Assembly: GCF_044324875.1 (NCBI RefSeq)
Contig: NZ_CP172185.1
Strand: one strand, 5' to 3'
DNA length: 64,000 nucleotides
Origin: Escherichia coli
Lineage (GTDB): Bacteria > Pseudomonadota > Gammaproteobacteria > Enterobacterales > Enterobacteriaceae
A program made the position numbers and the translations under genes. The first letter of the stretch is position 1. Each line of letters starts with the position of its first letter. Shown here one piece after another: positions 869 to 64,000 of this stretch. The notes below the pieces were generated by a model. It searched no databases. It was not told the DNA's origin and worked only from the letters and a program-made list of their open reading frames with translations.

Positions 869-958
869 GGAGAGATGCCGGAGCGGCTGAACGGACCGGT
901 CTCGAAAACCGGAGTGGGGGCAACTCCACCGGGGGTTCAAATCCCCCTCTCTCCGCCA
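869..958 (+). tRNA. serU: tRNA-Ser (anticodon CGA), 90 nt, long variable arm
   Basis: GGAGAGATGCCGGAGCGGCTGAACGGACCGGTCTCGAAAACCGGAGTGGGGGCAACTCCACCGGGGGTTCAAATCCCCCTCTCTCCGCCA. Anticodon stem CCGGT/ACCGG with loop CTCGAAA gives anticodon CGA. The variable arm differs from the attR copy by two compensatory changes. Confidence 0.9.
898..958 (+). repeat. attL core: 61 bp 3' portion of tRNA-Ser, directly repeated at 47168..47228 with 2 mismatches
   Basis: GGTCTCGAAAACCGGAGT[G/A]GGGGCAACTC[C/T]ACCGGGGGTTCAAATCCCCCTCTCTCCGCCA occurs at both ends of the phage-gene block. Integrase gene lies immediately inside. Confidence 0.75.
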
Positions 959-1003: not shown

Positions 1004-1040
1004 CTTGGAATTACTTGGAATATTTTCTTGGAATATTTTC
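1004..1040 (+). promoter_or_regulatory. Three tandem direct repeats CTTGGAAT(A/T)TT next to attL; putative integrase arm-type binding sites
   Basis: CTTGGAATTA, CTTGGAATATTTTC, CTTGGAATATTTTC in tandem, overlapping the int stop codon. An inverted copy (TTATTCCAAG) lies near attR at about 47113..47124. Confidence 0.4.
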
Positions 1041-2036
1041 AGGTAACGGGACATCAAGTGTTGGTGAAACTTTAACCTTCCGGTCATAGATTAGCACTTG
1101 CCCTTCGGTTTTGTGACCAGAGAAAAGTTGCTTATCCCGGCTGCTTCCTTCATAGTCTGAAATTCCTTTCGCCTTCAGATCATGAAAGGTGAAGTCGGTT
1201 AAAATACCTGAAACTTTGCCTGCGCGATTTCTTGCTTCTACCCACATTTCGTTAAAGCCTTTGTACATATATCGGTTGCCGTATTGATTGCTGATCACAT
1301 AGGCGGATTTTGGTAACTGTTTTGCTTTTTCGACCGCTGCCTGTAATCGTGGACTCCATGCTTTTATCTGTTTTTTCCCTGTTTTCCCTTGCTGGATAAA
1401 GATCCCGTCGTTTCCAATCTGCTCCCATTTCAGCGATAACACATCGGAAACCCTCGCTGCACACAGATAGGCAATTTCCATTGCGATAAAAACAGGAAGG
1501 GGTGCCACGCTTAATACTGCCTGGTATTCTTTGTCGGTTACATATCGTTCGCGGTTTTTGGCCTTGAATTTACTTACTCCTGCACATGGGTTAGCCTTCA
1601 CGTACCCTCGCTCATACCCCCAACTGTAAACACGGGACATACTGCTTTTTTCATGGTTGGCTTGCGTTTTACTCTGTTCCCCTCTTTTGTCCATGTATCG
1701 ACGGATGTGTTCTGGTTTTATGGAATCCGCTGGTACCTTACCGAATACGGCAAGCAACTTTTTTTGATGTTGCAGATAATCTTTTTGTGTTCTTGGACTA
1801 AGGTCACTGTAACAGGCGCTGGCGAGGAATTTTTCCCACAAGCGACCGAATGTCATTGCACGATCGCGATTATTTACAGTTTCCTCATACTTTTTCCATA
1901 AAGCAGCTAAACCATCCTTGATGGCGGTTAGTGTTACAGATTCTCTGGATGTTGGTTTCCATACATAACTATATTTATTTGGGTATACATTTGGAGGTAA
2001 TTTTTCGTGTTCAGGATTTTTCCTTCGTCTTCCCAT
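1011..2036 (-). CDS. int: Tyrosine integrase, lambda Int family
   Basis: 341 aa ORF. N-terminus MGRRRKNPEHEKLPPNVY resembles lambda Int MGRRRSHERRDLPPNLY. Adjacent to the tRNA attachment site. Confidence 0.9.
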   Translation of the reverse strand: MGRRRKNPEHEKLPPNVYPNKYSYVWKPTSRESVTLTAIKDGLAALWKKYEETVNNRDRAMTFGRLWEKFLASACYSDLSPRTQKDYLQHQKKLLAVFGKVPADSIKPEHIRRYMDKRGEQSKTQANHEKSSMSRVYSWGYERGYVKANPCAGVSKFKAKNRERYVTDKEYQAVLSVAPLPVFIAMEIAYLCAARVSDVLSLKWEQIGNDGIFIQQGKTGKKQIKAWSPRLQAAVEKAKQLPKSAYVISNQYGNRYMYKGFNEMWVEARNRAGKVSGILTDFTFHDLKAKGISDYEGSSRDKQLFSGHKTEGQVLIYDRKVKVSPTLDVPLPENIPRKYSK

Positions 2037-2239
2037 CAGATCGCACCAAAATTCGGCTCTACCTCGCGTGGTGGTAAAGTTTTATTGCAGGTAAATAGAT
2101 CCCGGCTGACAATCGGTTTGCCACTACGATTGGTATAGAACGGAAGCCCGTTTTCCATTAACCATTTTCGCTGGTGGCTTGCATATTTGCAGCCCGTTAA
2201 TATTAGCAATTCATCTTCGGTTAAAAATAAGCTGCTCAT
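2036..2239 (-). CDS. xis: Excisionase-like protein (Xis)
   Basis: 67 aa ORF whose stop overlaps the int start. Small basic protein with a DNA-binding-like motif. Position is canonical for xis. Confidence 0.65.
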   Translation of the reverse strand: MSSLFLTEDELLILTGCKYASHQRKWLMENGLPFYTNRSGKPIVSRDLFTCNKTLPPREVEPNFGAI

Positions 2240-2297: not shown

Positions 2298-4751
2298 TTA
2301 AAAATCAGCCTGATTCGGGATCAGTTTTTGTATAGTGGCTGTTACGTATTTTGCCTGGTGAAGAGCGTCATCCAGAGCATTATGGCGCACGCCTTCGAAT
2401 GGAATTACGCTTCTGGCATTGAAGTCTGTGATTTTCCCCATCTCAACGATTGTGCGTACATCACGATCGTTGCTGTAATGCCACGGACAGGGGATGTCCA
2501 GACGTTCGTATGAGGTGCGCAAAATTGCGTTATCGAACGTTGCGCCATTACCCCACACCTGAACGAATTTTTCATCAGAGTGTTCATTGACGAATTGCCG
2601 AAAACGCAAAAGGGCATCTTTCATTTTTACCTGGTCAGTTAAAATGGCAGCTCTGGCTTCGCTGGACTGCTTCAGCCACCATTCGATGGTGCCACCATCA
2701 GGAACAGCCCCTGTATTCATTGCGTCAGTCAGGCTGATAACGATATAAAATACCGGCCCGATTTCCCCTGTTTCCGGGTCGAAGAAAACCGCACCAATAA
2801 CTACTATGGGTGCATTGGTGTTGGCTCCCATTGTTTCAAGGTCGACTGACAGGTGATTCCATACTCTGCTGGTGGATGTGATTTCACGATGACCGTTCAT
2901 CTTAATTAAGGAATTTTCTGTTTCGCCAGTTTTATTATCGCTGGCGTGGCCCTGAGCGCCGCCAGTGTTCTCCTTGTGCGGATGCTCAGTGCCTTCCGTT
3001 TCCTCCGGATTTTTTTCCTGAGATTCAGCCTGATTTTCTCCATTGAATGTTTCCTGGTATGTTGCGTCACCCATTACTGAGCCACAATCAGGGCAGTTGC
3101 CGCCGCTGGTCTGACCGCAGGCGGTGCAGACTTTTTCCGGTTCCTGTTGCGCTACTGGCTCAGGTTGTTTCGTTTCTGGCTCGTTTTGTAACGCATTTTG
3201 GCTGTTTTGTTCCGCTTTCTGGTCGTTCTGTTCCGTTTCTTGCTGGTTCTGGTTCACTGAATCGCGAGTCTGGACTCCCTTAACCCATTTCAGATCATTC
3301 GGGTCGCTAATCCCTTCAACGAACTCACCACGCGAGGCCGCCAGTAATTTGTCTGCATCGACAGGATTTTTGGGCGGAATGTTTTTCCTAGCTTCATGGA
3401 GTTCTGCCCGCAGTTTCTGATATTTCGCATCAACAGAATTCACCTGCGGCTGAGCATCCAGCGGCTGCGTGTCCGGATGATGTTCAGTTGTATCCGGTTC
3501 CACTGTTTCAGTCGTTGGCTGTTCATCTGCCATTGCGCCAGACGGTTGCGGTTTTTCTTCATCATCCTGTTTTCCTTCTTCTGTTACACGCTGCGGCATT
3601 GGGGCAGAGGAACGACCGCAGGCAATATCCACGATTTCCGGATCAGGGTTGGCATGATCGGTTTCGGTCAGCACTTTATTCAAGTATTCGGTGACGCGCT
3701 GGGGCATAGCCTCTATACCAACCGGTGCTTCTTTCACGGAGGCAACCACGATGGCGCGGGAATAATCCATCCCGCCTGGCATGTTCAGAAAAGCCTTAAG
3801 GAAGACGGAGAAACAGGGATCATTTTCTGCGATAATTTCGTTAACACGTCTGGTATGTGAAGGATGCATGTTGTAAATATCCACATCCATCGAACGAGCC
3901 AGTTTTCCTGTAGCAACATCGAATGCCATTGACGCATTATCATGCACAAAACCTTCGCCGCGATCGGTAAGAATACCGCCGCCAGCGTTAGCGCCGGATG
4001 GTGTGCGACTGATGCGAGAAACACGATTTCCTTTCATCCACTCTTTTGTAAGCAGACCACGATCAGTGTAGTCAGCGTCCAGGTATGCTTCGATGAAGGA
4101 GGTCATCAGTCCCAGGTCTGAATTTACGGGGGCGGGAAAAACTTTGTCAGTGTCCCGCACCAGTTTGTACAAATCCCGAATCTCCAGCGGTTCGAGTTGC
4201 GCTGCTTTATTTGAGATGGCCAGCGCGGTAACGGCGGGAAGTTTTTCTTCCTGTGCGTTATGTAATGAGCGCAGTTCATCCCGCGAAACGTGCGTTACTG
4301 GTTTTTCGCCGCCGTGTTGCGCCAGCCAGCGAACAGGCAGAATCTGACCTGAAACCGGCAGAAGCATATTCTCCTCAATCTCAGTCATGTCTTCGCCATT
4401 AACATTGGTGTTGTCAGTGCTGGCTGGTTTGTCCTGCGCGGATGGCGGAGGCGCGATAAATATCATTGTGATGCCATCTTCGCCGCCTTTTTCATACCGG
4501 TTACAGAATTCGGTATCAAACACGCCTTCCGGTGGAAGGTCATCAACAACGGGCAAATGGACGCGAACAGGTTTTTTAAAGTCGTCTTCATCATAATCGT
4601 TATCATCCATTGCGGTAATGCAGCGGGAGATGGCAACAGATAATTTTTTTGCTGTAGTCCAGTAAAAACCACCTTTAATCCCAAGGCGTTTTCTGACTTT
4701 GTCATTTTTAGCTTCGCAATATAGCGCAAAAGTTTCTTTATCAGTGCTCAT
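2298..4751 (-). CDS. Large exonuclease with C-terminal DnaQ-like (DEDD) 3'-5' exonuclease domain; the type often annotated exodeoxyribonuclease VIII in E. coli prophages
   Basis: 817 aa ORF. C-terminal region has DLETMG...H...D motifs typical of DEDDh exonucleases. Central acidic/Gln-rich low-complexity region and an internal CxxC...CxxC zinc ribbon ([16 protein letters not shown]). Confidence 0.75.
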
Positions 4752-4870: not shown

Positions 4871-5092
4871 TCACCATGCCACCGCCTTTACAGGTAAACC
4901 ATCACGACCGAGGAAGACTTTAATCATGCGGTCAGTAATGCATGTTTTTGTAGTGAAATCACGGATATAAAGTTTTTGCTTTTCGATATTGTTTGCCGAG
5001 GCGATATATGTCCGGCCTTCGTAAATAACGTAATCGCCGGGAGTGACGCACTGGCGTGGTATTTCATCGGTTCCGAAGTGATGAGCAATCAT
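4871..5092 (-). CDS. Hypothetical small early protein (73 aa)
   Basis: ORF in the leftward early operon between the Rha-like gene and the exonuclease; no recognisable motif. Confidence 0.45.
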
Positions 5093-5137: not shown

Positions 5138-5692
5138 CTATTTAATACTCAGCAACTGCTCGACGGTCATATTTTTAATTGCGCCCCGGTTTATGAGAGT
5201 CCATCCCTGCTTTTCCAGATAAAAACGGAAAGTATCCAGAGTACAGACCAGTGCGCCATCAGGAACTGTTTCGGTGAATTTGATGTAGCCGTGTTCGTCG
5301 AAGCGGATAACCAGGGTGCGGCCATCACCCGGGATTATTTTGTCAGCGGGTGTGGTGTTATTCCGGCGCAGTTCTTCCTCCATGCGGTCGAACTCGGCAA
5401 TGTAGGCTTCCTTGAATGCAGCGGCCTTTTTGCCCGTGAAGCCCATCACAAGGAAAACGAAGCCGTTTTTGGTGATTTGGTACATTGGGAGTTTGCGTCC
5501 TGTTGAGTCGGTGTATTCGCTCGCCTTAAAATTAAGGGCAGTGAACTCAGCGGAGCAGTCCAGTAATTTTATTTTTTGGATAACATTGTCGTGACGCTTG
5601 CCAAAGAATTCCGCGATCGCAACAGACGTAGTGACAGCGCGACCATTTTCAATGGTTACGTCAGGGTGAGAAAGGGTAAGGGTAGTAGCCAT
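5138..5692 (-). CDS. Phage regulatory protein, Rha-like (185 aa from internal start)
   Basis: Track ORF 5138..5989; the ATG at 5692 is preceded by GGAGG with 8 nt spacing. Sequence from MATTLTLSHPDV...AIAEFFGKRHDNVIQKIKLL resembles the Rha family. A terminator-like hairpin sits inside the upstream extension. Confidence 0.65.
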   Translation of the reverse strand: MATTLTLSHPDVTIENGRAVTTSVAIAEFFGKRHDNVIQKIKLLDCSAEFTALNFKASEYTDSTGRKLPMYQITKNGFVFLVMGFTGKKAAAFKEAYIAEFDRMEEELRRNNTTPADKIIPGDGRTLVIRFDEHGYIKFTETVPDGALVCTLDTFRFYLEKQGWTLINRGAIKNMTVEQLLSIK

Positions 5693-5860
5693 AATGGCAG
5701 CCTCCACGTTGAGTATTGATAACTCACCACCGAGGCTTTCCACGACCATAATGGTGGTGAGACGTACAGGGGTGGAAATACCGGTCAACGTAGAACCCGG
5801 CCAGCCTTGCGGCTGCCCTGCACGCCCCACCATAATCTGAATGTGGCTGTGCTTCACGCA

Positions 5861-5884
5861 TAAAAAAACCGCCTGAGCGCGGTT
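5861..5884 (-). terminator. Rho-independent terminator-like hairpin on the minus strand
   Basis: Minus-strand AACCGC-GCTCAG-GCGGTT followed by a T-run; lies between dicF and the Rha-like gene. Confidence 0.5.
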
Positions 5885-6167
5885 GTGCGCTACGTTTGAC
5901 TTCGGGTTTCCACGCCCGGCACCCGGTTTATGAGGTGCAGGTGCACTATAATTCCACCCGTACTGGTTTTCAATAGCTACATTCAACATTTTCTCTTACC
6001 TTTCATCACCGAAGTGAACTTTGTTGATGCGGTGCCAGGTGCCTCCAGGTGACGTTAACCAGTTAACAATTAACGCCGGATACAGAGAATCCACCCATAA
6101 CTCTGTTTTTGGTTTTAACTGTTCCACGTGCGATCAGCCGCATTCACCACATCACAAAATTCACTTT

Positions 6168-6225
6168 AAAAAGGGCGGCAGAGCAGTCACGGAGTAAAAC
6201 TGATACCGCAAAACGTCACCAGAAA
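6168..6225 (-). ncRNA. dicF: DicF sRNA homolog (ftsZ-targeting sRNA of Qin-type prophages)
   Basis: Minus strand reads TTTCTGGTGACGTTTTGCGGTATCAGTTTTACTCCGTGACTGCTCTGCCGCCCTTTTT, nearly identical to the recalled K-12 DicF (one difference) and ending in its own terminator. Lies downstream of a DicA-like repressor as in Qin. Confidence 0.7.
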
Positions 6226-6480
6226 ATTGATAACAGATGGCGTTGCAGCGGGGTTGTCACTCAGGCGCATGGTCAACCTGACAACCCGGTGTCCTCAAGG
6301 GGAAGGGAACCCCGCCATGCTTACCGCCGCGCCATTTCGCGGAGTGCCACAACCGGAAGCGGACGGTCGACGAAAATTTAACGACAGGCTATATATGAAC
6401 CAGCTACCTCGCCGTGCGCTTTCGTGTTGTGTGCCTGCTTTTAACCACGTCAGGCGAGGTGGTATCCTCTGAGGGGTCTG

Positions 6481-6837
6481 TTACCCGAGAGGAAATTGGT
6501 TATGAATACAATCAAGTTTTCTTGCCCAGAATGTGGTGGCGAAGTCTTCGACACATCCTTTAAGCCGCAGGGCTCTGACAGTTTCGCGGGAGCCATCTGC
6601 AAAAATTGTGGTCACCTTGTAACTGAAGATGAGTCCTCGCAATTCGATGAGGAAATCGTTGACAATATCTTCGGTGTAATCACCGGAGCCTTTCTGAAGT
6701 AAAGGCACATACCGCTTAGTTACCGCTCTGATAATTCTTACCTGCCCGGCAATGGCGCTGATGTCAATATAAAGCGCCATTGCTGCTTCTTTGCCGATCC
6801 CGGGATGCCTTCCATTCTGATGTTTGACTTCGCCCAC
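6481..6837 (-). CDS. Hypothetical protein (118 aa) in leftward operon orientation; overlaps the antisense zinc-ribbon ORF
   Basis: GTG start at 6837 preceded by AGGA at about 7 nt; first ORF after the 7066..7096 terminator. No recognisable domain. Mutually exclusive with 6502..6702. Confidence 0.3.
   Translation of the reverse strand: MGEVKHQNGRHPGIGKEAAMALYIDISAIAGQVRIIRAVTKRYVPLLQKGSGDYTEDIVNDFLIELRGLIFSYKVTTIFADGSRETVRALRLKGCVEDFATTFWARKLDCIHNQFPLG
6502..6702 (+). CDS. Small zinc-ribbon protein (66 aa), antisense to the early-left operon
   Basis: MNTIKFSCPECGGEVFDTSFKPQGSDSFAGAICKNCGHLVTEDESSQFDEEIVDNIFGVITGAFLK has two CxxC pairs about 25 aa apart and an acidic tail. ATG at 6502 preceded by GAGAGGAAATTGGTT. 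Confidence 0.4.
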   Translation: MNTIKFSCPECGGEVFDTSFKPQGSDSFAGAICKNCGHLVTEDESSQFDEEIVDNIFGVITGAFLK

Positions 6838-7065
6838 TGAGAAATCCTCTGTTTCCCCTTAACGCCGGGGTAGCGGAACAAAAACCTGCTGCATAGTTAA
6901 AGTTAAACCCTGCCGTCATGTTCATACGCCTCGGGCTGGCTACTTAACCCCTGACCACTGCCTGGTAACTCGAAGTATTGCCCTGCGTTCTGTGGGGCGG
7001 GGTGGGTTGGTGAAATTAGTTTATACAAAAATAAACTTAACAGTCAATCTGCAACTTAACTAAAC

Positions 7066-7096
7066 AGTAAAAAATAACACTCTCTTTGAGAGTGTT
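7066..7096 (-). terminator. Rho-independent terminator downstream of the parE-like gene
   Basis: 9 bp stem AACACTCTC/GAGAGTGTT with a 3 nt loop, followed on the minus strand by ATTTTTTAC. Confidence 0.6.
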
Positions 7097-7121: not shown

Positions 7122-7406
7122 TTATGTTACAGGGAACTGTCGGCGGGTATGGACTACGTTTACTATTTCAATACTTGAGGTTGTCACGCGGTACAGAATT
7201 ATATAATTGGGGTGAGCCACAATCTCACGTAAGCCTGGCACTCTGTCGCTTGGGGGGTATAAATACGGATGTTCGGATAATGGCAGCACACACCCCCTTA
7301 ATCGCTGCCATAAGCGTTCTGCCGCATCTATGTCGAAACGAGCAATGTAACTAGTTATATCATCCAGGTCGGTATCTGCGCTTTCAGGCCATAACACAGG
7401 TAACAT
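7122..7406 (-). CDS. parE: ParE/RelE-superfamily toxin (ParE2-like) of a three-gene TA cassette
   Basis: 94 aa. N-terminal LWPESADTDLDDITSYIARFDIDAAERLWQRL and C-terminal IVAHPNYIILYRV fit the ParE pattern. Start abuts the stop of the upstream antitoxin. Confidence 0.8.
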   Translation of the reverse strand: MLPVLWPESADTDLDDITSYIARFDIDAAERLWQRLRGCVLPLSEHPYLYPPSDRVPGLREIVAHPNYIILYRVTTSSIEIVNVVHTRRQFPVT

Positions 7407-7598
7407 TTACTGTTCACTCCGTTCCTTGCGTATTTTAGCAAAGCGTTCTGCCATTCTGCGCTCAACTTCGTCATGGGGAATTGCTGGGCGCGGATCTGCA
7501 AGGCTTGCAGCTACTTTGGCTCGCAGCCATTCGTTGTAACTGTTTTCTTGTTCAATAGTTTCAAACTCAGAAACCATTGGTGAAAGGGCCGTATTCAT
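7407..7598 (-). CDS. paaA: PaaA2-like antitoxin (63 aa)
   Basis: ATG at 7598 preceded by GGAGG. MNTALSPMVSEFETIEQENSYNEWLRAKVAASLADPRPAIPHDEVERRMAERFAKIRKERSEQ resembles the recalled PaaA2 antitoxin of O157 prophage three-component systems. Confidence 0.7.
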   Translation of the reverse strand: MNTALSPMVSEFETIEQENSYNEWLRAKVAASLADPRPAIPHDEVERRMAERFAKIRKERSEQ

Positions 7599-7627
7599 GG
7601 CACACCTCCGTCTGTGTATGGTGGTCA

Positions 7628-8026
7628 TTATGCCCGATGCCCTTTCCGGGCAGCGAGCCATCTTTCAATTGTGCGATCCATTAACTCTTTTTTGTCTTTC
7701 ATCTCCTGAAGCATTTGCTCTTGATCTTCCTCTGGAAATGCCTCAAATGTTTGAAGTAGCTCCTTTTGCCTAGGAGTTATTTTTATTATATCTTGTATTC
7801 TGTCATTTTTTTCTTCATTTAACGGTAAGAAGAACCAATACTGAGGATATCCTGTTGCTTCAGATAGTTTATCTAGATTAGCTGCTGTAGGGCTTGAGAT
7901 ACCACAAACCCATCTTTGAACGGATTGTTGAGTAATGCCAATTCTGCGCGCAAGTTCTGCCTGGCTCCAGCCTGTTACCAACAAAAGCTTCCTAATTCTA
8001 AGAGCACTAATTTCGAGTACACCCAT
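7628..8026 (-). CDS. paaR: PaaR-like HTH regulator (DicA paralog); start uncertain (track ORF extends to 8101 from TTG)
   Basis: XRE-type HTH (GWSQAELARRIGITQQSVQRWVCG). C-terminal LTPRQKELLQTFEAFPEEDQEQMLQEMKDKKELM is paralogous to the C-terminus of the adjacent repressor. Sits directly upstream of the antitoxin-toxin pair. Confidence 0.6.
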   Translation of the reverse strand: MGVLEISALRIRKLLLVTGWSQAELARRIGITQQSVQRWVCGISSPTAANLDKLSEATGYPQYWFFLPLNEEKNDRIQDIIKITPRQKELLQTFEAFPEEDQEQMLQEMKDKKELMDRTIERWLAARKGHRA

Positions 8027-8060
8027 CTGATATATCTTGTTTTTAAGAGTATGCTTCCCA

Positions 8061-8432
8061 TCAGGCGCGGCGACCTTGCTGCGCCAACCAACGTGCGACA
8101 AAATCTTCCATTGCTTCTTTTTTGTTTCTTAGTTCTTTTATGATCTCTTGCTGTTCATTATCAGGAAATGCACTAAATATTTGTAGCAATTCCAGCTGGT
8201 TAGGGGTTAATGCTATAGCTCTTGATGATGGAGACTCTGTTATGTCTTCTGGCTCAATATCAAGATAACCCCCTGGCATCCCATATGTTTGTTCAATACG
8301 TCTAGCTGCTTTTTCGCCAAACGTAGCCTTACCGCTCATTAACTGAGATAAGTAACTTTTCTCTTTGGGTGGCAAAGTTCTGTCTTTGAACCACTCTTTG
8401 AGGCGTAAACGCCGAATCTCTCTTGTTTCCAT
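8061..8432 (-). CDS. dicA: Prophage immunity repressor, DicA-like (HTH_XRE)
   Basis: 123 aa. HTH (SYLSQLMSGKATFGEKAARRIEQTYG) and C-terminal LTPNQLELLQIFSAFPDNEQQEIIKELRNK resemble recalled Qin DicA. Divergent from the cro-like gene. Confidence 0.75.
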   Translation of the reverse strand: METREIRRLRLKEWFKDRTLPPKEKSYLSQLMSGKATFGEKAARRIEQTYGMPGGYLDIEPEDITESPSSRAIALTPNQLELLQIFSAFPDNEQQEIIKELRNKKEAMEDFVARWLAQQGRRA

Positions 8433-8535
8433 ACATGCATTATCTTTAGTAATTGCGAAATAAGCAAATACTTGACTGGTTTATTTAGTTACGTATAAAC
8501 TTTTGCTTGCACTAAAGTATGTTGAGATCGAAATC
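8433..8535. promoter_or_regulatory. Divergent immunity promoter/operator region between the repressor and cro-like genes
   Basis: Sigma70-like rightward promoter TTGACT (8472..8477), 16 bp spacer, TATAAA (8494..8499). Flanked by partially palindromic TTTAGTAA / ACTAAAG motifs that may be operators. Confidence 0.5.
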
Positions 8536-8823
8536 ATGACTCTAAAGGAATTCATCAAATCATTAAAAACTGGAGAAGCAAAAAAATTTGCTGCCAACCT
8601 TGGTGTGTCTCCGTCCTTCTTGTCTCAAATGGCATCTGGCAGTTCACCAGTGTCTCCTGTTCGTGCGTTAATGATAGAAGCAGAAACTGCAGGGCATGTT
8701 ACAAGAAGAGAGTTGAGGCCGAATGACTGGGATCTTATATGGCCGGAATACACCGGAATTACGCCCCCTTCAAGTCATAAATATGAGCTTAACACCAAAA
8801 AAGTTGATGGGGTTGATTCATGA
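8536..8823 (+). CDS. Cro-like regulator, YdaS/DicC-type HTH
   Basis: Internal ATG at 8536 of track ORF 8503..8823. Motif KFAANLGVSPSFLSQMASGSSPVSPVRALMIEAETAGHV resembles Rac YdaS. First rightward gene. Confidence 0.7.
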   Translation: MTLKEFIKSLKTGEAKKFAANLGVSPSFLSQMASGSSPVSPVRALMIEAETAGHVTRRELRPNDWDLIWPEYTGITPPSSHKYELNTKKVDGVDS

Positions 8824-13215: not shown

Positions 13216-13451
13216 TTTTATGGATCACCTTTCTGATTGATTTCATATTGGCGAGGTGACGGGAGTTAAGTAGAATTGCTGCGGGTGCTTGAGGCTATCT
13301 GCCTCGGGCATGAACACCAACGGCAGATAGAGAAAAGCCCCAGTTAACATTATGCGTCCTGCAAGACGCTTAACATTAATCTGAGGCAGAATCTATGTCT
13401 AGCAAATGTAGGTTAGCCTCTTACGTGCCGAAAGGCAAGGAGAAGCAGGCT

Positions 13452-13607
13452 ATGAAGCAGCAAAAGGCGATGTTAGTCGCCCTGATCGTCATCTGTATTA
13501 CCGTCATTGTGACGGCACTGGTAACGAGGAAAGACCTCTGCGAGGTACGAATCCGAACCGGCCAGACGGAGGTCGCTGTCTTCACAGCTTACGAACCTGA
13601 GGAGTAA
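13452..13607 (+). CDS. hok: Hok/Gef-family membrane toxin (type I toxin-antitoxin)
   Basis: MKQQKAMLVALIVICITVIVTALVTRKDLCEVRIRTGQTEVAVFTAYEPEE (51 aa) closely resembles HokD/RelF. Track ORF 13395..13607 carries an in-frame upstream extension. Upstream leader has inverted repeats. Confidence 0.8.
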   Translation: MKQQKAMLVALIVICITVIVTALVTRKDLCEVRIRTGQTEVAVFTAYEPEE

Positions 13608-35474: not shown

Positions 35475-35659
35475 ATCGATCGCAGTTTGGCATTCGAATC
35501 GATCATGATTTGGCATCCATCTCCGATCACAGTTTGGCATCACAATCGATCACGATTTGGCATGCTTCCGATCATTGATTGGCATCCTGCCAGTCACTCC
35601 GGGAATTAACTCTTTTCACCACAGTCTCCATTGCCGTGTTTAAACCAGTGGAGACGTCA

Positions 35660-37225
35660 ATGTCCAGAAAGAGAAAATCCAGGAGCACTATGGAAACCTG
35701 TTTTAAGATCCTTCAGCTCAAGTTCGACAAGAAGCTGACTAACCGTTGTATCGGACTGACGTTACACATCAGCGCCTCAACCGTTTTTGAGGTTCTTGCC
35801 CGCTTCAAAGCCTCTTCTCTGTCATGGCCATTACCTGCTGATATATCCCATGACACGCTGGAGAAACTCATTTTTCCGCCCAAAGACACCTTTGCATCAG
35901 AGCTTGTAATGCCTGACATGTTGTACTTCGATACGGAAATGAGAAAACCAGGTGTGACGCGGCAACTGTTGTGGATGGAATACAAGGCACAGGCGGGTAA
36001 CAAAGCGATGGGATACTCGCACTTCTGCCGTTGCTACCGGGAGTGGAAAAAAACGCGACGTCTCTCCATGCGCCAGGAGCATCGTGCCGGCGAAAAGCTT
36101 TTTATCGACTTCTGTGGTCCTACGGTTCCTGTTATTAATCCGGACACCGGTGAGATACGCCGCGTGGCAATCTTCGTGGCCGTAATGGGGGCGTCCAACT
36201 ATACCTACGTTGAAGCGTGCGAAGGTCAGGACATGATGTCATGGTTAAATGCCCACAGCCGTTGCCTGACCTTCCTGGGCGGCGTACCGAAGCTGCTCAT
36301 CCCCGATAACCTCAGAAGCGCAGTGAAAAAGGCCGATCGATATGAGCCTGTCATCAACGACAGTTATCAGGCACTGGCTGAGCACTATGGCACGGTTATC
36401 ATCCCGGCCCGACCACGCAAACCTAAAGATAAACCAAAAGCAGAAAACGGCGTCCTCATCGTTGAACGATGGCTTCTTGCCCGCATCCGTAATGAAACCT
36501 TCCACACGCTCAGGGCGCTGAATGCGCGCCTTAGGGAGTTACTGACAGACATGAATAACCGGCCAATGAAGGGGTACGGCAATCAAACCCGTGCAGAACG
36601 CTTCCGCATACTGGATGCGCCAGCACTCTCTCCGCTGCCTCTGGCACCTTATGAATACACGGAATACAAAGCTGTGAAGGTTGGCCCTGACTACCACGTT
36701 GAATATGCCCGTCACTGGTACTCCGTTCCACACGAACTGGTCGGTCAGCGTCTGTCACTGAAGGCGGGGCAGTCGGTGGTACAGCTCTGGCACAAGGGGC
36801 AGTGTGTGGCGCAACATCCGCGCAGCACACATGAATATAAACACACAACCAATCCGCTTCACATGCCAGAGCGCCACCGGCAGCACGGGACATGGACACC
36901 GGAACGCCTGATCGAGCAGGGAAAACGTACGGGCCCGTCCACAGGCCGGGTGGTTGAATCCATGCTGAAGGCAAAACCCCATCCGGAACTGGCTTATCGT
37001 GCAGTTCTGGGGCTGCTGGCACTTCAGAAAAAATACGGCCCGGAACGGCTGGAAAAGGCCTGTTACGTTGCCCTGCACTATAACGCCCCTGACAGACGCT
37101 TTATCGACAATCTGCTGCGTCACCATCGGGAGAACCTGGAGCTTCCATTATCCCGCCAGGGCGAACAACATCCGGCATATGCTTCAGAGCATGAAAACCT
37201 GCGTGGTCCGGGCTACTACCACTGA
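35660..37225 (+). CDS. istA: IS21-family transposase IstA
   Basis: Internal ATG at 35660 with GGAG RBS; about 521 aa with N-terminal HTH and DDE-type core. Confidence 0.85.
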   Translation: MSRKRKSRSTMETCFKILQLKFDKKLTNRCIGLTLHISASTVFEVLARFKASSLSWPLPADISHDTLEKLIFPPKDTFASELVMPDMLYFDTEMRKPGVTRQLLWMEYKAQAGNKAMGYSHFCRCYREWKKTRRLSMRQEHRAGEKLFIDFCGPTVPVINPDTGEIRRVAIFVAVMGASNYTYVEACEGQDMMSWLNAHSRCLTFLGGVPKLLIPDNLRSAVKKADRYEPVINDSYQALAEHYGTVIIPARPRKPKDKPKAENGVLIVERWLLARIRNETFHTLRALNARLRELLTDMNNRPMKGYGNQTRAERFRILDAPALSPLPLAPYEYTEYKAVKVGPDYHVEYARHWYSVPHELVGQRLSLKAGQSVVQLWHKGQCVAQHPRSTHEYKHTTNPLHMPERHRQHGTWTPERLIEQGKRTGPSTGRVVESMLKAKPHPELAYRAVLGLLALQKKYGPERLEKACYVALHYNAPDRRFIDNLLRHHRENLELPLSRQGEQHPAYASEHENLRGPGYYH

Positions 37226-37241
37226 CAGAAGGAACAACAGT

Positions 37242-37997
37242 ATGAGTGATAACCTGTTAAACAAACTGACCCAACTGAAACTCCCGGCGATGGCCGGGAG
37301 CCTGATACGGCAGCGGGAAACGCCTCAGACCTACGACGAACTGTCGTTCGAGGAAAGGCTGACGCTGCTGGTTGATGACGAGCTTCTGAGCAGGGAAAAC
37401 AGCCGTGTGGCACGGTTGAGAAAAAATGCCGGCCTGAAATACCAGGCAACACCGGAAGGGCTGCGCTATCCGGCCTCAAGAGGTCTGCGGGCTGAACAGA
37501 TGAGAGAACTGCTGAACGGCCACTACATAACCCACAGGAAAAACCTGCTGATAACCGGTCCGACAGGATGTGGCAAGAGCTGGATAGCCAATGCGCTGGG
37601 CGAACAGGCATGTCGACAGAAACACAGCGTCCGGTACTGTAGAACCGGGCGATTACTGGAACAACTGGCTCAGGGACGTGTTGATGGCAGCTGGCTGAAA
37701 TATCTGAAACAGTTGCAAAAAATACAGGTTCTAATCCTGGACGATCTGGGGCTGGAACAGTTAAGTAACGCCCAGTGTAATGACCTTCTGGAGCTCATAG
37801 AGGATCGTTACGGACAAAGCAGCACGATAGTGGTAAGCCAGTTCCCGGTAGATAAATGGCATGGTCTGATGGAGAACCCAACAACAGCAGATGCCATCCT
37901 GGACAGACTGGTACATAACTCACACCGAGTGGTCCTTCAGGGAGAGTCACTGAGGAAAAATCCCCCGGTAGTGGAAAGCAGCGAAAAAACGCGTTAA
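37242..37997 (+). CDS. istB: IS21-family ATP-binding helper IstB
   Basis: MSDNLLNKLTQLKLPAMAGSL...LITGPTGCGKSWIANALG (Walker A)...LILDDLG (Walker B). Confidence 0.85.
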   Translation: MSDNLLNKLTQLKLPAMAGSLIRQRETPQTYDELSFEERLTLLVDDELLSRENSRVARLRKNAGLKYQATPEGLRYPASRGLRAEQMRELLNGHYITHRKNLLITGPTGCGKSWIANALGEQACRQKHSVRYCRTGRLLEQLAQGRVDGSWLKYLKQLQKIQVLILDDLGLEQLSNAQCNDLLELIEDRYGQSSTIVVSQFPVDKWHGLMENPTTADAILDRLVHNSHRVVLQGESLRKNPPVVESSEKTR

Positions 37998-38096
37998 AAA
38001 GCGGTAGAAAAAGTTAAGTTCCCGGTTGATCGAATGGATGCGAATCGCTGATCGGACTTCGATGCCAATCCGTGATCGAATAGAGCGGAATACGCA

Positions 38097-40219
38097 TACC
38101 GGGCGATGTCATTGAAATCTGTGATGATGACTATGCCGGTATCAGCACCGGTGGTCGTGTGCTGGCGGTGAACAGCCAGACCCGGACGCTGACGCTCGAC
38201 CGTGAAATCACGCTGCCATCCTCCGGTACCACGCTGATAAGCCTGGTTGACGGAAGTGGCAATCCGGTCAGCGTGGAGGTTCAGTCCGTCACCGACGGCG
38301 TGAAGGTAAAAGTGAGCCGGGTTCCTGACGGCGTTGCCGAGTACAGCGTGTGGGGGCTGAAGCTGCCGACGCTGCGCCAGCGCCTGTTCCGCTGCGTGAG
38401 TATCCGTGAGAACGACGACGGCACGTATGCCATCACTGCCGTGCAGCATGTACCGGAAAAAGAGGGCATCGTGGATAACGGGGCACACTTTGACGGTGAC
38501 CAGAGCGGCACGGTGAATGGTGTCACGCCGCCAGCAGTGCAGCACCTGACTGTCGAAGTCACCGCAGACAGCGGGGAGTATCAGGTACTGGCCCGCTGGG
38601 ACACGCCGAAGGTGGTGAAAGGCGTGAGTTTCATGCTTCGCCTGACCGTGGCAGCGGATGACGGCAGTGAGCGGCTGGTCAGCACGGCCCGGACGACGGA
38701 AACCACATACCGCTTCAGGCAGCTGGCGCCGGGGAACTACAGGCTGACAGTCCGGGCAGTAAATGCCCGGGGGCAGCAGGGAGACCCGGCGTCGGTATCG
38801 TTCCGGATTGCCGCACCGGCAGCGCCGTCGCGGATTGAGCTGACGCCGGGCTATTTTCAGATAACCGCCACGCCGCATCTTGCCGTTTATGATCCGACGG
38901 TGCAGTTTGAGTTCTGGTTCTCGGAAAAGCGGATTACCGATATCAGGCAGGTTGAAACCACAGCCCGTTATCTTGGTACCGGAAGTCAGTGGCTTGTCTC
39001 CGGCCAGAATATTAAACCTGGCCATGATTATTACTTTTATATCCGCAGTGTTAACACTGTCGGTAAATCGGCATTCGTGGAGGCAGTCGGTCGGGCGAGT
39101 AATGATCCTGCCGGTTACCTTAATTTTTTCAGGGGGGCGATAAATAAAACGCATCTGGGACGGGAGATCAATGAACGCATTGATGCCTCTGCACGGCGCA
39201 CTGAAGTTGAGCAACTGGAGAATGCGATTAACCGCGAAATGACGCAGCTGGAGAATGCGATTAACCGCGAAATGACGCAGCTGGAGAAAGATGTGAGGCA
39301 GCGTGCGGAGCGTGATATCGCAGAGGTGACGAAAAAAATCACGGCGTCTGAAAACAGCATAACGGAACTGGTGGCGAAAAAGAGCGGTGAACAGTCGCTG
39401 GCCATTGCGAAAGTCGACAGGAAAGTTGACAGCGTGAGCAGTGAAATCCGGCAGACAGTAAGCAGGAGCACGGAGGAGAACAGCCGACAGATAGCGCAGG
39501 TCAGGCAGTATGTTGATGATAAAAGTGCGCAAATAAGTACTGTTGTGGCGAAAAAGAGCGGTGAACAGTCAATGGCCATTGCGGAAGTTGACAGAAAAGT
39601 TGACAGGATGGGCAGCGAAATCCGGCAGACAGTAAGCAGGAGCACGGAGGAGAACAGCCGACAGATAGCGCAGATCAGACAGTATGTTGATGATAAGGGA
39701 AGTCAGATCAAACAGAGCACGGATAAAAAACTGGGATCCTGGAATGCCAGCATTGAGCAGATACAGAAAGTTCAGGAGGACACGCGCCGGAACCTGAACA
39801 GCATGTGGGCTGTGAAGCTGCAGCAGACACGGGATGGACGTCTCTATATTGCAGGTATTGGTGCCGGAATCGAAAATACGTCTGACGGAATTCAGAGTCA
39901 GATCCTGATGCAGGCAGATCGTATTGCGATGATTAACCCGGAAAATGGCAATACAACACCTTTGTTTGTGGCTCAGGGTGATCAGCTGTTCATGAATGAT
40001 GTTTTCATGAAAAAACTGACCGTGGATTTTGCCAGAGTGACGGGAGATATCCGGTCAGATAATTTTCATTCCGGTAGTCCGGGGTGGCGTTTATCAAGAA
40101 ACGGCAGCCTTGAAATTAACTCAGGAAGGCCCGGCGCAGGCCGCCTGTTTTTCAATGGCGAGCGAATCGACGTATATGACGATAACAATGTGTTAAGAGT
40201 ACGACTGGGGAGACTGTAA
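38097..40219 (+). pseudogene. J: Host specificity protein J, C-terminal fragment (distal tip diverges from lambda and carries tandem duplications)
   Basis: Continues the lambda-J-like sequence [43 protein letters not shown]. Track ORF 38159..40219. Confidence 0.85.
39214..39718 (+). repeat. Tandem duplications inside the J distal region: 2 x 33 bp and 2 x about 174 bp
   Basis: CTGGAGAATGCGATTAACCGCGAAATGACGCAG twice ([11 protein letters not shown] x2). A larger unit starting GTGGCGAAAAAGAGCGGTGAACAGTC repeats at about 39371 and 39545 with about 90 percent identity. Confidence 0.7.
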
Positions 40220-41483: not shown

Positions 41484-42812
41484 ATGGCGGCTGTAAAAAT
41501 TTCAGGCGTGCTCAGGGACGGAACCGGAAAACCGGTACCGGGATGCATTATTGAGCTGAAAGCGAAGAGAACCAGCGAGACAGTCATCGCCACGACAGTG
41601 GCTTATGGCATGCCGGAAGAGACGGGGAGTTACAGTATGGATGTGGAGCCAGGAATATACAGGGTGACACTCAATACAGAAGGTTACCGTCCTTCGTATG
41701 TGGGAGATATCGTGGTCAGGGAGGATTCTTCACCGGGAACACTGAATAAATTTCTGATGGAGATGGAAGATGCTCCTTATTATCCGAAGGCGTTGTCAGA
41801 GCTGGAGGCTGTGGTGCAGTCCATACTGCACAGAGCAGAGTCCGCGGCATCTGAGGCGGAGGAAGCCCGGAAGCGAGCAGCATCTGCCCGGGGACCACGA
41901 GGAGAGAAAGGGGATACCGGCGCTCGTGGTGAAAGAGGCATTACCGGGCCACAGGGGCCAAAAGGTGAAACAGGAGCACGTGGCCCGGCAGGACCACAGG
42001 GACCAAAAGGTGAAACAGGTGAACGCGGTCCGGCAGGTCCACAGGGACCAAAGGGCGATACAGGTGAACGCGGCCCGGCAGGTCCACAGGGACCAAAAGG
42101 TGAAACAGGTGCACGTGGTCCGGAAGGTCCACAGGGAGCAAAAGGTGAAACAGGTGAACGCGGCCCGGCAGGTCCACAGGGAGCAAAGGGCGAAACAGGT
42201 GCACGTGGTCCGGAAGGCCCTCAGGGTCTGAAGGGAGAAAAGGGTGAGCGAGGAGAAAAAGGCCCTAAGGGGGATAAAGGAGATCCGGGAGGTCCACAGG
42301 GACCAAAAGGTGAAACAGGTGAACGTGGCCCGGCAGGTCCACAGGGACCAAAAGGTGAAACAGGTGAACGTGGCCCGGCAGGTCCACAGGGACCAAAGGG
42401 CGATACAGGTGAACGCGGTCCGGCAGGTCCACAGGGGCCAAGAGGGTATACAGGTGAACGCGGGCCGACAGGTCTACAGGGGCCAAGAGGGTATACAGGT
42501 GAACGCGGGCCGGCAGGTCCACAGGGGCCAAGAGGAGAAGCGGGGCGGCCAGCGAGCGTCGGAAGTGTTTATTCCGTGGGGTCTTATGTTCTGGGGATCA
42601 TAGAACGAAATCATGAGATAACAAATACCCGTCAAATACCCGGGTATCGTATCAGACAGGCCGTTATTGTGTCGTCGTCATCGGATAAACTTACAGATAT
42701 CCGCTTTTTATTTGGCAATCCTATGCTTGGTACATGGATGTTATGCACAACTAACATGGCGGTGAATAATATCAGTGGGACGATTTGGGGCCTGTTTCAG
42801 AGAATACTGTGA
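41484..42812 (+). CDS. stf: Side tail fibre protein with collagen-like Gly-X-Y repeats
   Basis: N-terminal tail-fibre domain ([63 protein letters not shown]) followed by about 70 G-X-Y triplets. Confidence 0.85.
41884..42546 (+). repeat. Collagen-like triplet repeat array (tandem about 45 bp units) within the tail fibre gene
   Basis: Repeated GGTCCACAGGGACCAAAAGGTGAAACAGGTGAACGCGGCCCGGCA-type units encoding [15 protein letters not shown]; explains the many antisense ORFs in the track here. Confidence 0.8.
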
Positions 42813-42950: not shown

Positions 42951-43032
42951 TAACCGGCTCATTTAAACCGTCTGGTCTGTTTCCTCCGGCTCTACAAAAA
43001 TAATGTCCATCATTTTTAATGGACACTATCGT

Positions 43033-43680
43033 ATGAAACACCGGACCTGGATCACTGAAGCTTTACGTCTTCACTTTGAAGAACATTTACCCCGGGTTGT
43101 GGCCGGGCGTCGCCTGGGTGTACCAAAATCAACAGTTTGTAGTATGTTCGTGCGCTTTCGGAGAGCTGGCCTTTCGTGGCCTTTGCCCGCAGGCATGTCG
43201 GAGCAGGAACTTGATGCCTGCCTTTACGGACAATTTTCCACGGTACCAGTCGTACGTCCTGAAAGCACCGTTATATCCGAAGCCCCCGTGGTAAAAAAAC
43301 GTCCCCGGCGGCCCAACTTCCCTTATGAGTTTAAAATCGCCTTAGTGGAGCAGTCACTGCAGCCCGGAGCCTGTGTGGCGCAGATCGCCCGGGAAAACGG
43401 AATCAACGATAACCTGCTCTTCAACTGGCGCCATCAATACCGGAAAGGTGGCCTGCTGCCTTCCGGAAAAAATATGCCGGCACTGCTTCCCGTGACGTTA
43501 ACGCCGGAGCCGGATAATAAAATCCCGGCCCCCGCACAGGAACCAGAGCAGATAAATACACCGTCCGACAGTCTGTGTTGTGAGCTGGTTCTGCCGGCCG
43601 GAACTCTCAGGCTTAAAGGTAAACTGACGCCGGCGTTATTACAGACACTTATCCGCGAAATAAAAGGGAGCAGCCACTGA
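43033..43680 (+). CDS. tnpA: IS66-family accessory protein TnpA (orf1)
   Basis: Internal Met of track ORF 43003..43680; HTH-like N-terminus. Confidence 0.7.
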   Translation: MKHRTWITEALRLHFEEHLPRVVAGRRLGVPKSTVCSMFVRFRRAGLSWPLPAGMSEQELDACLYGQFSTVPVVRPESTVISEAPVVKKRPRRPNFPYEFKIALVEQSLQPGACVAQIARENGINDNLLFNWRHQYRKGGLLPSGKNMPALLPVTLTPEPDNKIPAPAQEPEQINTPSDSLCCELVLPAGTLRLKGKLTPALLQTLIREIKGSSH

Positions 43681-44027
43681 TGATATCTCTCCCTGCAGGT
43701 TCGCGTATCTGGCTGGTTGCAGGTATCACCGATATGCGAAATGGCTTTAACGGCCTGGCATCAAAAGTTCAGAACGTCCTGAAGGATGACCCGTTCTCCG
43801 GACACCTGTTCATCTTCCGCGGACGCCGGGGTGACCAGATAAAAGTGTTGTGGGCTGACAGTGACGGACTGTGCCTCTTCACCAAACGCCTGGAGCGGGG
43901 CCGCTTCGTCTGGCCAGTCACCCGTGACGGCAAGGTGCACCTTACTCCGGCTCAGTTATCCATGCTTCTTGAAGGTATCAACTGGAAGCACCCGAAACGA
44001 ACGGAACGCGCTGGAATCCGCATATAA
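43680..44027 (+). CDS. tnpB: IS66-family TnpB (orf2)
   Basis: 115 aa; MISLPAGSRIWLVAGITDMRNGFNGLASKVQNVLKDDPFSGHLFIFRGRRGDQIKVLWAD is the typical IS66 Orf2. Confidence 0.85.
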   Translation: MISLPAGSRIWLVAGITDMRNGFNGLASKVQNVLKDDPFSGHLFIFRGRRGDQIKVLWADSDGLCLFTKRLERGRFVWPVTRDGKVHLTPAQLSMLLEGINWKHPKRTERAGIRI

Positions 44028-44046
44028 CCCGTTGTAAAGTGAGGAT

Positions 44047-45618
44047 ATGGACACCTCACTTGCTCATGAGAACGCCCGCCTGCGGGCACTGTTGCAGACG
44101 CAACAGGACACCATCCGCCAGATGGCTGAATACAACCGCCTGCTCTCACAGCGGGTGGCGGCTTATGCTTCCGAAATCAACCGGCTGAAGGCGCTGGTTG
44201 CGAAACTGCAACGTATGCAGTTCGGTAAAAGCTCAGAAAAACTTCGTGCAAAAACCGAACGGCAGATACAGGAAGCACAGGAGCGAATCAGCGCACTTCA
44301 GGAAGAAATGGCGGAAACGCTGGGTGAGCAATATGACCCGGTACTGCCATCCGCCCTGCGCCAGTCTTCAGCCCGTAAACCGTTACCGGCCTCACTTCCC
44401 CGTGAAACCCGGGTTATCCGGCCGGAAGAGGAATGCTGTCCTGCCTGTGGTGGTGAACTCAGTTCTCTGGGATGTGATGTGTCAGAGCAACTGGAGCTTA
44501 TCAGCAGCGCCTTTAAGGTTATCGAAACACAACGTCCGAAACAGGCCTGTTGCCGGTGCGACCATATCGTGCAGGCACCAGTACCTTCAAAACCCATTGC
44601 ACGCAGTTATGCCGGAGCGGGGCTTCTGGCCCATGTTGTCACCGGGAAATATGCAGACCATCTGCCGTTATACCGCCAGTCAGAAATATACCGTCGTCAG
44701 GGAGTGGAGCTGAGCCGTGCCACACTGGGGCGCTGGACAGGTGCTGTTGCTGAACTGCTGGAGCCGCTGTATGACGTCCTGCGCCAGTATGTGCTGATGC
44801 CCGGTAAAGTCCATGCTGATGATATCCCCGTCCCGGTCCAGGAGCCGGGCAGCGGTAAAACCCGGACAGCCCGGCTGTGGGTCTACGTCCGTGATGACCG
44901 TAACGCCGGTTCACAGATGCCCCCGGCGGTCTGGTTCGCGTACAGTCCGGACCGGAAAGGTATCCATCCACAAAATCACCTGGCCGGTTACAGCGGTGTG
45001 CTTCAGGCCGATGCTTACGGTGGTTACCGGGCGTTATACGAATCCGGCAGAATAACGGAAGCCGCGTGTATGGCTCATGCCCGGAGAAAAATCCACGATG
45101 TGCATGCAAGAGCGCCCACCTACATCACCACGGAAGCCCTGCAGCGTATCGGTGAACTGTATGCCATCGAGGCAGAGGTCCGGGGCTGTTCAGCAGAACA
45201 GCGTCTGGCGGCAAGAAAAGCCAGAGCCGCGCCACTGATGCAGTCACTGTATGACTGGATACAGCAACAGATGAAAACACTGTCGCGTCACTCAGATACG
45301 GCAAAAGCGTTCGCATACCTGCTGAAACAGTGGGATGCACTGAACGTGTACTGCAGTAATGGCTGGGTGGAAATCGACAACAACATCGCAGAGAACGCCT
45401 TACGGGGAGTGGCCGTAGGCCGGAAAAACTGGATGTTCGCGGGTTCCGACAGCGGTGGTGAACATGCGGCGGTGTTGTACTCGCTGATCGGCACATGCCG
45501 TCTGAACAATGTGGAGCCAGAAAAGTGGCTGCGTTACGTCATTGAACATATCCAGGACTGGCCGGCAAACCGGGTACGCGATCTGTTGCCCTGGAAAGTT
45601 GATCTGAGCTCTCAGTAA
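44047..45618 (+). CDS. tnpC: IS66-family transposase TnpC (orf3)
   Basis: 523 aa with N-terminal coiled coil, Cys cluster CPACGG...CCRCDH, and DDE-type core. Confidence 0.85.
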
Positions 45619-46805: not shown

Positions 46806-47167
46806 AATTCACCACAGCTATAAATTATAAAGAAAACCGCAGCATGTCGTATGCAAGAACGTGCTGCAGCTGGCTGGTTAACTTTCGATAGTGCGAGTAT
46901 TGAATGATTTCCAGCCGTTACCGATTTTATATAACTGCAGTGGAATTATTCAACACAGGCAAAACGGAATAAGCTGAGAAAAAAGCGTACTTTCCCAATC
47001 TGGGGCAAATCACGTCTGAATGACACCTGACAACAGATGGTGGCCTCAAGAAGGCTTGGAATATTCTTCTTTAATGTTATGTAAATTATTGATTTTTCGT
47101 GTACGATTTTAAGACATTTATTCCAAGAAAAATTTTTAACTCTTTGATTTTTCGACTCTGTATCATC

Positions 47168-47228
47168 GGTCTCGAAAACCGGAGTAGGGGCAACTCTACC
47201 GGGGGTTCAAATCCCCCTCTCTCCGCCA
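47168..47228 (+). repeat. attR: partial 3' copy of tRNA-Ser with the host-type variable arm
   Basis: GGTCTCGAAAACCGGAGTAGGGGCAACTCTACCGGGGGTTCAAATCCCCCTCTCTCCGCCA; lacks the tRNA 5' half. Confidence 0.75.
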
Positions 47229-55870: not shown

Positions 55871-56498
55871 TATGTATTCCCTTGTGATTATAATCTTCAT
55901 GAATATATCAATAAGTGCCGTTATCCAAAAAAAAGCACATTTGGATACTATTCTATGAAGTTCATTTTATTTTAAAGATTACATGTAACAAATATATTTA
56001 AAAGATTTCAAAATGTTTCTAATCTATTTAATATAATTCAGAATTATGAATTCTAAATATAAATATTCATGAAAATTATAAATGTATATCAATATGTTAT
56101 GAGTTGAGCGGAAACATAGGGGGTATCAATGATTGTTGCGCCAAACGGCTGGTGTGATCACGCGCACATTAATGAAGGCATAAAAAAAGCCGGCATCATG
56201 CCGGCCCAAAAAAAATAAACAAGACGATAAAAGGCTAATAACGGAAGCATCATGACACAGAATAATAAAAAGGTATAATTGTAATCAGTGCTAATATATT
56301 GATTGAATGAATTAATAAAGCCGATATCAAAGATAAATAAAATCGCTCAAAACGATTTTTCCTGTATTCACTGCCGTTGCGCAAAAATTATCTATTTGTT
56401 CAAAAAATGATTGAGTCTTGACTGGCTCATCCAATGTGGAAAAATGTGACTTTTATCACATAATAGTACTAAGTCTGAATTTTCCGGGTTATCTCAAA

Positions 56499-57535: not shown

Positions 57536-57601
57536 GCGCGTGGCCCTAAATGGCTGTAATTATGTTAACCTGTCGGCCATCTCAGATGGCCGGTTAAATC
57601 T

Positions 57602-60380: not shown

Positions 60381-60552
60381 AATCCCTCACGGTGGAAATA
60401 AAAAGGTGGTTCATAGTAAACGTGAAAATCATTCTGCTGGCGAGAGATATAATTGCACTTGATTGTTAAAAAAATGTTGACCTGTGAAGCAAGTATCAGA
60501 GCTACCGTTTTTGCTTCATACTTACACCCTTCAACAATAAAAATGAGAGGGA

Positions 60553-61470: not shown

Positions 61471-61548
61471 TACTCGCACTGGCTATTATGCAAAATTCGC
61501 CATCTTAAACTAAGGTGAACAAGTTTCACTCGAAAAAAGGAGGCGAGT

Positions 61549-61901: not shown

Positions 61902-64000
<2,099 letters not shown>

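Follow-up and report, generated by a model that had tools for sequence, protein, structure and literature searches.

DicF without dicB in a lambdoid prophage at serU of Escherichia coli

The stretch of Escherichia coli DNA analysed here (64,000 nucleotides, called the window in what follows) carries on its minus strand, at 6168..6225, a dicF gene composed of the 53-nt DicF sRNA (6225..6173) and a U5 tail that runs to 6168, as recognised by Rfam family RF00039, by alignment to K-12 and by its fold. Judging from this sequence and its surroundings, we consider it quite likely, with a probability of about 0.8, that the gene is functional and conditionally expressed, and that it belongs to a PL-type leftward early operon of an IS-damaged prophage inserted at serU in an E. 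coli/Shigella chromosome. In place of dicB, we found a Gifsy-1-type module made of IsrK, a C4-like RNA and a Rha-family antirepressor, followed by Kil. The presence of DicF without dicB in this serU prophage is real but ordinary, since DicF copies without dicB recur in hundreds of E. coli genomes, and the arrangement was already known.

When both strands of the whole window were scanned with all Rfam families, the DicF covariance model RF00039 matched the minus strand at 6224..6173 with 67.3 bits (gathering score 48) and an E value of 1.2e-12, and the match covers the model at full length (positions 1-52 of 52). Alignment to K-12 dicF showed 52 of the 53 nt to be equal, the sole change being G16U, at window position 6210; the copies of AR_0085, PEC422 and LH50-c were aligned as well. 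The 14 nt located 5' of the DicF start, among them the site where RNase E cuts, are the same in the window and in K-12, as are the seed regions of the RNA, and the terminator hairpin is kept with its U5 tail (6+5 pairs remain). Both the covariance-model search and the alignment to K-12 had been proposed in a preliminary description of this DNA, which placed a near-exact DicF with its own terminator on the minus strand at 6168..6225; its identification, its coordinates and its terminator are all borne out by these results. A chance resemblance, or a call on the wrong strand, is ruled out for all practical purposes by the E value of the match and by 428 nt of homology, in the same orientation, to the dicF region of Qin.

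The gene lies in a lambdoid prophage of about 46.3 kb, whose ends are marked by two att repeats of 62 bp (897..958 and 47167..47228). The first of these, attL, is the 3' part (62 nt) of the serU gene for tRNA-Ser(CGA), which ARAGORN places at 869..958 on the plus strand. The second, attR, is a copy of the serU 3' end in the same orientation, detected as a blastn repeat and 96.8% identical, so that the assignment to a serU prophage made in the preliminary description is correct. The chromosomal flank (57000..63900) shares 99.6% identity with E. coli. Also outside the prophage is rseX, a host sRNA gene (56182..56271, minus strand; Rfam 95.1 bits), which fits the E. coli serU-yed neighbourhood. 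Within the prophage, the late region contains genes for a Q-like antiterminator, an endolysin, the terminase, the portal, the capsid and the tape-measure protein. An IS21-family element (istA/istB 35579..37997; region 35475..38158) splits the tail-fibre gene J, which makes the prophage defective for tail assembly. An IS66-family element, with TnpA and a 523-aa transposase, is present at 43003..45618, near the right end of the prophage. Given this IS damage, selection on the lytic programme of the prophage may be relaxed, but its regulatory arm looks intact. Two other loci were recorded in passing. A toxin-antisense locus of the hok/sok type occupies 13283..13607 (plus strand) in a nin-like region, with an Rfam sok match of 114.9 bits and a Hok-like ORF. 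Downstream of J, a 442-aa ORF (41484..42812, plus strand) contains collagen-like Gly-X-Y repeats, with matches to collagen-like adhesin models that stay below the cut-offs; it is probably a side tail fibre.

The question arises as to what the single substitution in DicF does. With G16U, the terminator stem loses its outermost G-C pair, a pair that Rfam flags as non-canonical. Because the outer pair is lost, the minimum free energy (MFE) of the hairpin is weaker in the window (-12.6 kcal/mol) than in K-12 (-15.9 kcal/mol), a loss of about 3.3 kcal/mol. The substitution was found in 0 of 120 DicF copies from IMG/VR, all of which have G at position 16, in a sample of viral contigs chosen for an exact DicF. 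In complete E. coli genomes, no identical full-length copy of the 86-nt DicF segment was present among the matches listed; identity reaches 98.8% in the best three of these, and in AR_0085 and PEC422, the two for which an alignment was made, nt 16 is the sole difference from the window. G16U thus looks like a private and recent substitution, and it is possibly mildly deleterious.

A decaying and inert copy could account for such an allele: the weakened hairpin, which serves both termination and Hfq binding, would give no stable RNA, in a defective prophage under relaxed selection. The private character of G16U, the drop in MFE and the presence of an IS21 element in J and of an IS66-family element all agree with this scenario. 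However, only one change is found in 58 nt, the remaining pairs of the hairpin and the U5 tail are kept, and the seed regions are those of K-12. Moreover, intact ORFs are present for the regulatory region, for int, xis and kil, and for the antirepressor module. We therefore regard decay as unlikely, and retain a functional dicF as the preferred reading.

Much of what DicF would do in this prophage can be drawn from K-12, where the dicBF operon is silent under repressor control. In that strain, the 5' end of DicF is generated by RNase E and the 3' end of the 53-nt form by its own intrinsic terminator; a 72-nt form arises by RNase III processing of read-through RNA. DicF binds Hfq and, through its 3' region, base-pairs to the ftsZ ribosome-binding site (RBS), which blocks the synthesis of FtsZ; further targets that it represses are xylR, by pairing of its 5' region, and pykA, by pairing of its 3' region (PMC5069750). 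In the window, the single-stranded 5' part that pairs with xylR and the 3' part that pairs with ftsZ and pykA are the same as in the validated K-12 RNA, except for nt 16. Since all other nucleotides are identical, the K-12 mechanism may be carried over, and the window DicF would be processed and would act like the K-12 RNA. As regards ftsZ, the prediction is based on identity with K-12 DicF, because the RNAduplex computation against the K-12 ftsZ leader does not discriminate (-38.0 kcal/mol, against a mean of -31.2 and a standard deviation of 4.3 for shuffled sequences).

The homology to Qin extends on both sides of the sRNA. A cassette of 428 nt on the minus strand (6442..6015) corresponds to K-12 Qin L002:3663-4092, with 93.75% identity over 432 columns in blastn; it consists of about 217 nt of conserved precursor on the 5' side, DicF itself, and about 157 nt on the 3' side. 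Homology to Qin is confined to this segment of the window and does not reach the dicB ATG, ending about 30 nt short of it. When the K-12 proteins were searched by tblastn in the 64-kb window, the best E values were 0.93 for DicB, 0.40 for YdfD and 0.11 for DicC, and no match with E < 0.07 was obtained for YdfA, YdfB or YdfC. The statement in the preliminary description that there is no recognisable dicB is in line with these values, and none of the 62 active codons of dicB is present.

In K-12, the dicB reading frame stays open on the 5' side of the ATG; going by the title of Cam et al. 1988, the inhibitor is reportedly translated from an internal start that is in phase. Of this in-phase upstream extension, about 32 codons are kept in the window (6127..~6030), after which the sequence diverges to a stop. 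This retention explains the PGAP label 'DicB, missing C-terminus' borne by the equivalent stretch in LH50-c and AR_0085. We considered whether the PGAP 'DicB pseudogene' might be a true remnant of dicB and rejected it, as the stretch contains the upstream in-phase extension only and nothing of the active gene. Counterparts of this 'DicB pseudogene' are located at 6016..6127 (minus strand) in the window, at 6012..6086 in L001 and at 2884..2949 in L004.

Upstream of DicF, two tandem and paralogous DicA-like HTH regulators (phrog_5736), which are candidate prophage repressors, are encoded on the minus strand at 7628..8432. The first (8432..8061) is 33% identical to DicA and the second (8101..7628) 30% identical, and tblastn with DicA gave E values of 2.5e-6 for the match at 33% identity and 1.3e-12 for the match at 30%. 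With the NCBIfam DicA model NF007257, they score 30.9 and 58.9 bits, respectively, below the cut-off of 101. Both have the fold and the length of DicA, and neither has a cleavage domain of the LexA type. On these comparisons, the two tandem proteins are not DicA orthologues. The preliminary description had considered that the DicA-like repressor was conserved; this does not hold, given an identity of 30-33%, scores below the cut-off of the DicA model, and the missing ydfABC genes.

A RelB/RelE pair, a terminator and a PL-like promoter separate the HTH regulators from DicF. The toxin-antitoxin pair (7122..7661, minus strand) is formed by a RelB-family antitoxin (7661..7407) and a RelE/ParE-family toxin (7406..7122), and its homologues are annotated likewise; it scores 84.6 bits with NCBIfam model NF050103 (cut-off 50), and 21.6 bits with TIGR02385, which is below the cut-off of 27.9. 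The terminator scan placed an intrinsic terminator after relE at 7076..7096 (minus strand), with a 9-bp stem and a T run, and this terminator precedes the candidate early-left promoter, TTGACT-18-TAAACT, found by promoter scan at 7018..7047 (minus strand). On the plus strand, a PR-like promoter (8472..8501) and a Cro/HTH-like first rightward gene (8503..8823) occupy 8472..8823, as judged from the promoter scan, an inverted repeat and PHROG. The HTH pair, the RelB/RelE pair and the terminator are all located between these divergent PR-like and PL-like promoters. The promoters at 7018..7047 and 8472..8501 are 77% inverted copies of each other, both reading TTGACT...GTATAAACT, which suggests that they have shared operator sequences. 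Consensus scans and homology lead us to infer that 7018..7047 is the PL promoter of this prophage.

The PL-like promoter is followed by a leader (6852..7011) that is 97.5% identical to the stretch just 5' of the ydfA-family gene of AR_0085 (annotated DUF1391), and a 28-nt core of this leader is also found just 5' of ydfA in K-12. As this leader is shared with the stretch upstream of ydfA, DicF occupies the same operon position in these prophages. Between the leader and the DicF cassette, the blastn block boundaries delimit a 409-nt cassette (6443..6851) that replaces ydfABC. It contains an ECs_2282-family zinc-ribbon ORF at 6496..6702 on the plus strand (NF047912, 57 bits against a cut-off of 37) and, antisense over it, a phrog_21318 ORF at 6780..6481 on the minus strand (E 2e-61). 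In ten homologues of the overlapping ORFs (6481..6780), non-synonymous changes exceeded synonymous ones in both frames, so that neither frame is favoured.

The locus can now be compared with the dicBF region of Qin. Common to both are the DicF sequence apart from one nucleotide, the 428-nt cassette, the terminator with its U5 tail, and a leftward early operon position downstream of the immunity region. In contrast, Qin has ydfA, ydfB and ydfC 5' of dicF, where the window has the ECs_2282 cassette; Qin continues with the 62-codon dicB and ydfD, whereas in the window another sequence takes over about 30 nt ahead of the dicB ATG. The window repressors are about 30% identical to DicA of Qin, the G16U change breaks one stem pair, and the prophage is integrated at serU while Qin has its own site. 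The locus is not a dicBF operon of the Qin type: ydfABC, dicB with ydfD, and DicA with DicC are all lacking.

Directly after the end of the Qin homology, the promoter scan found a sigma-70-like promoter, TTGAAA-17-TATAGT, at 5945..5973 (minus strand), which is a candidate promoter for IsrK by its consensus match (10/12). It is followed on the same strand by the IsrK sRNA at 5862..5938 (RF01394, 67.1 bits against a gathering score of 50), with its own terminator at 5884..5867, and by a C4-like antisense RNA at 5750..5837 (RF01695, 78.6 bits against a gathering score of 45), which corresponds to the orf45 region of Gifsy-1. Three sRNA genes, DicF, IsrK and the C4-like one, are thus arranged in tandem inside about 480 nt. 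The next gene, at 5138..5692 (minus strand), encodes a Rha-family, AnrP-like antirepressor (TIGR02681, 122.6 bits against a cut-off of 45.95; PHROG 995, 518, 373 and 63), and is annotated as a long ORF from 5989. A Rha-like gene downstream of DicF had been noticed in the preliminary description, rightly as far as the next protein gene is concerned, but the IsrK and C4-like RNAs in between had been missed.

This module resembles the isrK-orf45-anrP locus of Gifsy-1 (PMC4825925), in which IsrK, with its own promoter and terminator, also precedes the structured orf45/C4-like region and a Rha-family antirepressor. It differs from it in two respects. First, it is placed directly downstream of a DicF cassette, unlike in Gifsy-1. 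Second, no stop codon separates the orf45-equivalent AUG at 5833 from the in-frame antirepressor AUG at 5692, so that the two frames are fused, whereas they are joined by an overlapping AUGA stop/start in Gifsy-1; the same fusion between orf45 and the antirepressor is described in S. dysenteriae (PMC4825925). A C4-family antisense RNA upstream of an antirepressor gene is also the arrangement of the c4-icd-ant immI operon of P1/P7. However, no icd gene was identified in the window, the phage is lambdoid, and IsrK is present upstream.

The leftward operon continues with kil (4871..5092, minus strand), a Rac-type kil gene encoding an FtsZ inhibitor, about 1.1 kb downstream of DicF. Its product matches NF008465 at 149.9 bits (cut-off 92) over positions 1-73 of 73, and PHROG 294 with E 9e-34. 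With Kil, the operon still encodes a protein that inhibits FtsZ alongside DicF; 'DicF without dicB' is therefore not to be read as a prophage without a protein division inhibitor, as Kil replaces DicB as the partner. Kil of Rac (kilR) and DicB of Qin are alike in being small FtsZ-directed inhibitors encoded in an early-left operon with recombination and excision genes, but they have no sequence relation, and it is Kil, not DicB, that accompanies DicF in the window. Farther downstream, and co-oriented with kil, are an exonuclease VIII-like (RecE-like) gene at 2298..4751 (PHROG 607, E 4.5e-250; NF007259, 1027.9 bits, below the cut-off of 1269), and, at 1011..2239, an excisionase-like gene (2036..2239) and the integrase gene (1011..2036), all on the minus strand. 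The last two were taken from the ORF list, and were assigned from weak tyrosine-recombinase matches and from their LH50-c homologues, which are annotated integrase and excisionase.

The following sequence of events can be proposed for a functional and conditionally expressed dicF. A repressor would hold the PL-like promoter (7047..7018) shut and thereby keep dicF silent. Upon derepression, a long leftward transcript would cross the leader and the ECs_2282 cassette and enter the DicF cassette of 428 nt. Read-through would then extend to IsrK, the orf45/C4 region, the antirepressor gene, kil, exo, xis and int, and the same induction would also produce Kil, a protein FtsZ inhibitor in the role that DicB has in Qin.

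Alternatively, the DicF hairpin may act mainly in cis; as a site of leaky termination or of processing, it would set the flow of PL transcription towards IsrK, the antirepressor, kil and int, the trans role on ftsZ being secondary. In every context seen, an intrinsic terminator is found between promoter-proximal and distal genes, and these distal genes need read-through (dicB in Qin; kil, xis and int in the window); the terminator-like structure of DicF has also been pointed out in a review (PMC12197685). However, genetic work on the K-12 RNA, which is nearly the same, has shown that it represses ftsZ, xylR and pykA in trans by pairing directly with them (PMC5069750), and the single-stranded 5' part and the loop, which a pure terminator would not need, are identical across copies. 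A mainly cis role appears highly improbable to us, and an sRNA that would act in trans, as in K-12, is preferred.

A more elaborate scheme would link DicF, IsrK and the C4-like RNA in one coupled switch. The DicF terminator, made leakier by G16U, would let PL transcription pass into the isrK-orf45-antirepressor mRNA, and the antirepressor would inactivate the DicA-like repressors, which are non-cleavable, and reinforce PL. Such positive feedback would result in a two-pronged block of FtsZ by DicF and Kil. We hold this scheme to be decidedly doubtful.

To place the locus among others, the DicF cassette was searched in complete E. coli genomes. It is present in 4,662-4,729 of the 5,426 genomes, in about 11,500 places, with a median of 2 per genome and a maximum of 10. 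The K-12-type stretch with DicF and dicB occurs in 3,982 genomes, and the DicF-IsrK-C4 junction, at a coverage of at least 80%, in 317 of the 5,426. No complete genome matched the 3-kb region from end to end; an origin outside E. coli was considered on this account, and rejected in view of the 99.6% identity of the chromosomal flank to E. coli. The IMG/VR sample, composed of 120 viral contigs with an exact DicF, includes 105 contigs with enough downstream sequence to be classified: DicF is followed by dicB in 95 of them, by IsrK-Rha-Kil without dicB in five, directly by kil in four, and by another arrangement in one. DicF copies without dicB therefore represent about 10% of the classifiable contigs.

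Single genomes illustrate how the neighbours of the cassette are exchanged. The order is ydfABC-DicF-IsrK-Rha-kil in AR_0085, ydfABC-DicF-dicB in PEC422, and ECs_2282-DicF-IsrK-Rha-kil, at the ompW site, in LH50-c. The combination seen in the window, with the ECs_2282 cassette 5' of DicF and IsrK-Rha-kil 3' of it, is thus shared with LH50-c and related E. coli. As far as these sequence comparisons go, the DicF cassette is a mosaic module with interchangeable neighbours and free recombination. The idea that DicF is a portable module, put forward in the preliminary description, agrees with such mosaic neighbours, but it is not new, the same junction being present in 317 genomes. Faubladier & Bouche (1994), a paper cited by Balasubramanian et al., reportedly makes the same point in its title, that of dicF in several prophages. 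The occurrence of dicF in several prophage contexts has been described by Balasubramanian et al. (PMC5069750), and lambdoid prophages of pathogenic E. coli, CP-933O/M/P and those of Sakai, carry additional dicF copies (PMC5069750).

The serU prophage adds one more DicF copy to its host, and could add to the DicF dosage effects described for pathogenic E. coli. It otherwise matters little beyond correct annotation, although it offers a clean example of DicF cassette shuffling among lambdoid prophages. In genome annotation, DicF, IsrK and C4 are commonly left unmarked, and a long 'Rha' ORF and a 'DicB pseudogene' are called instead. Among sequenced phages, the DicF cassette is found for instance in Evi, the PPompW phages, mEp460 and Tritos.
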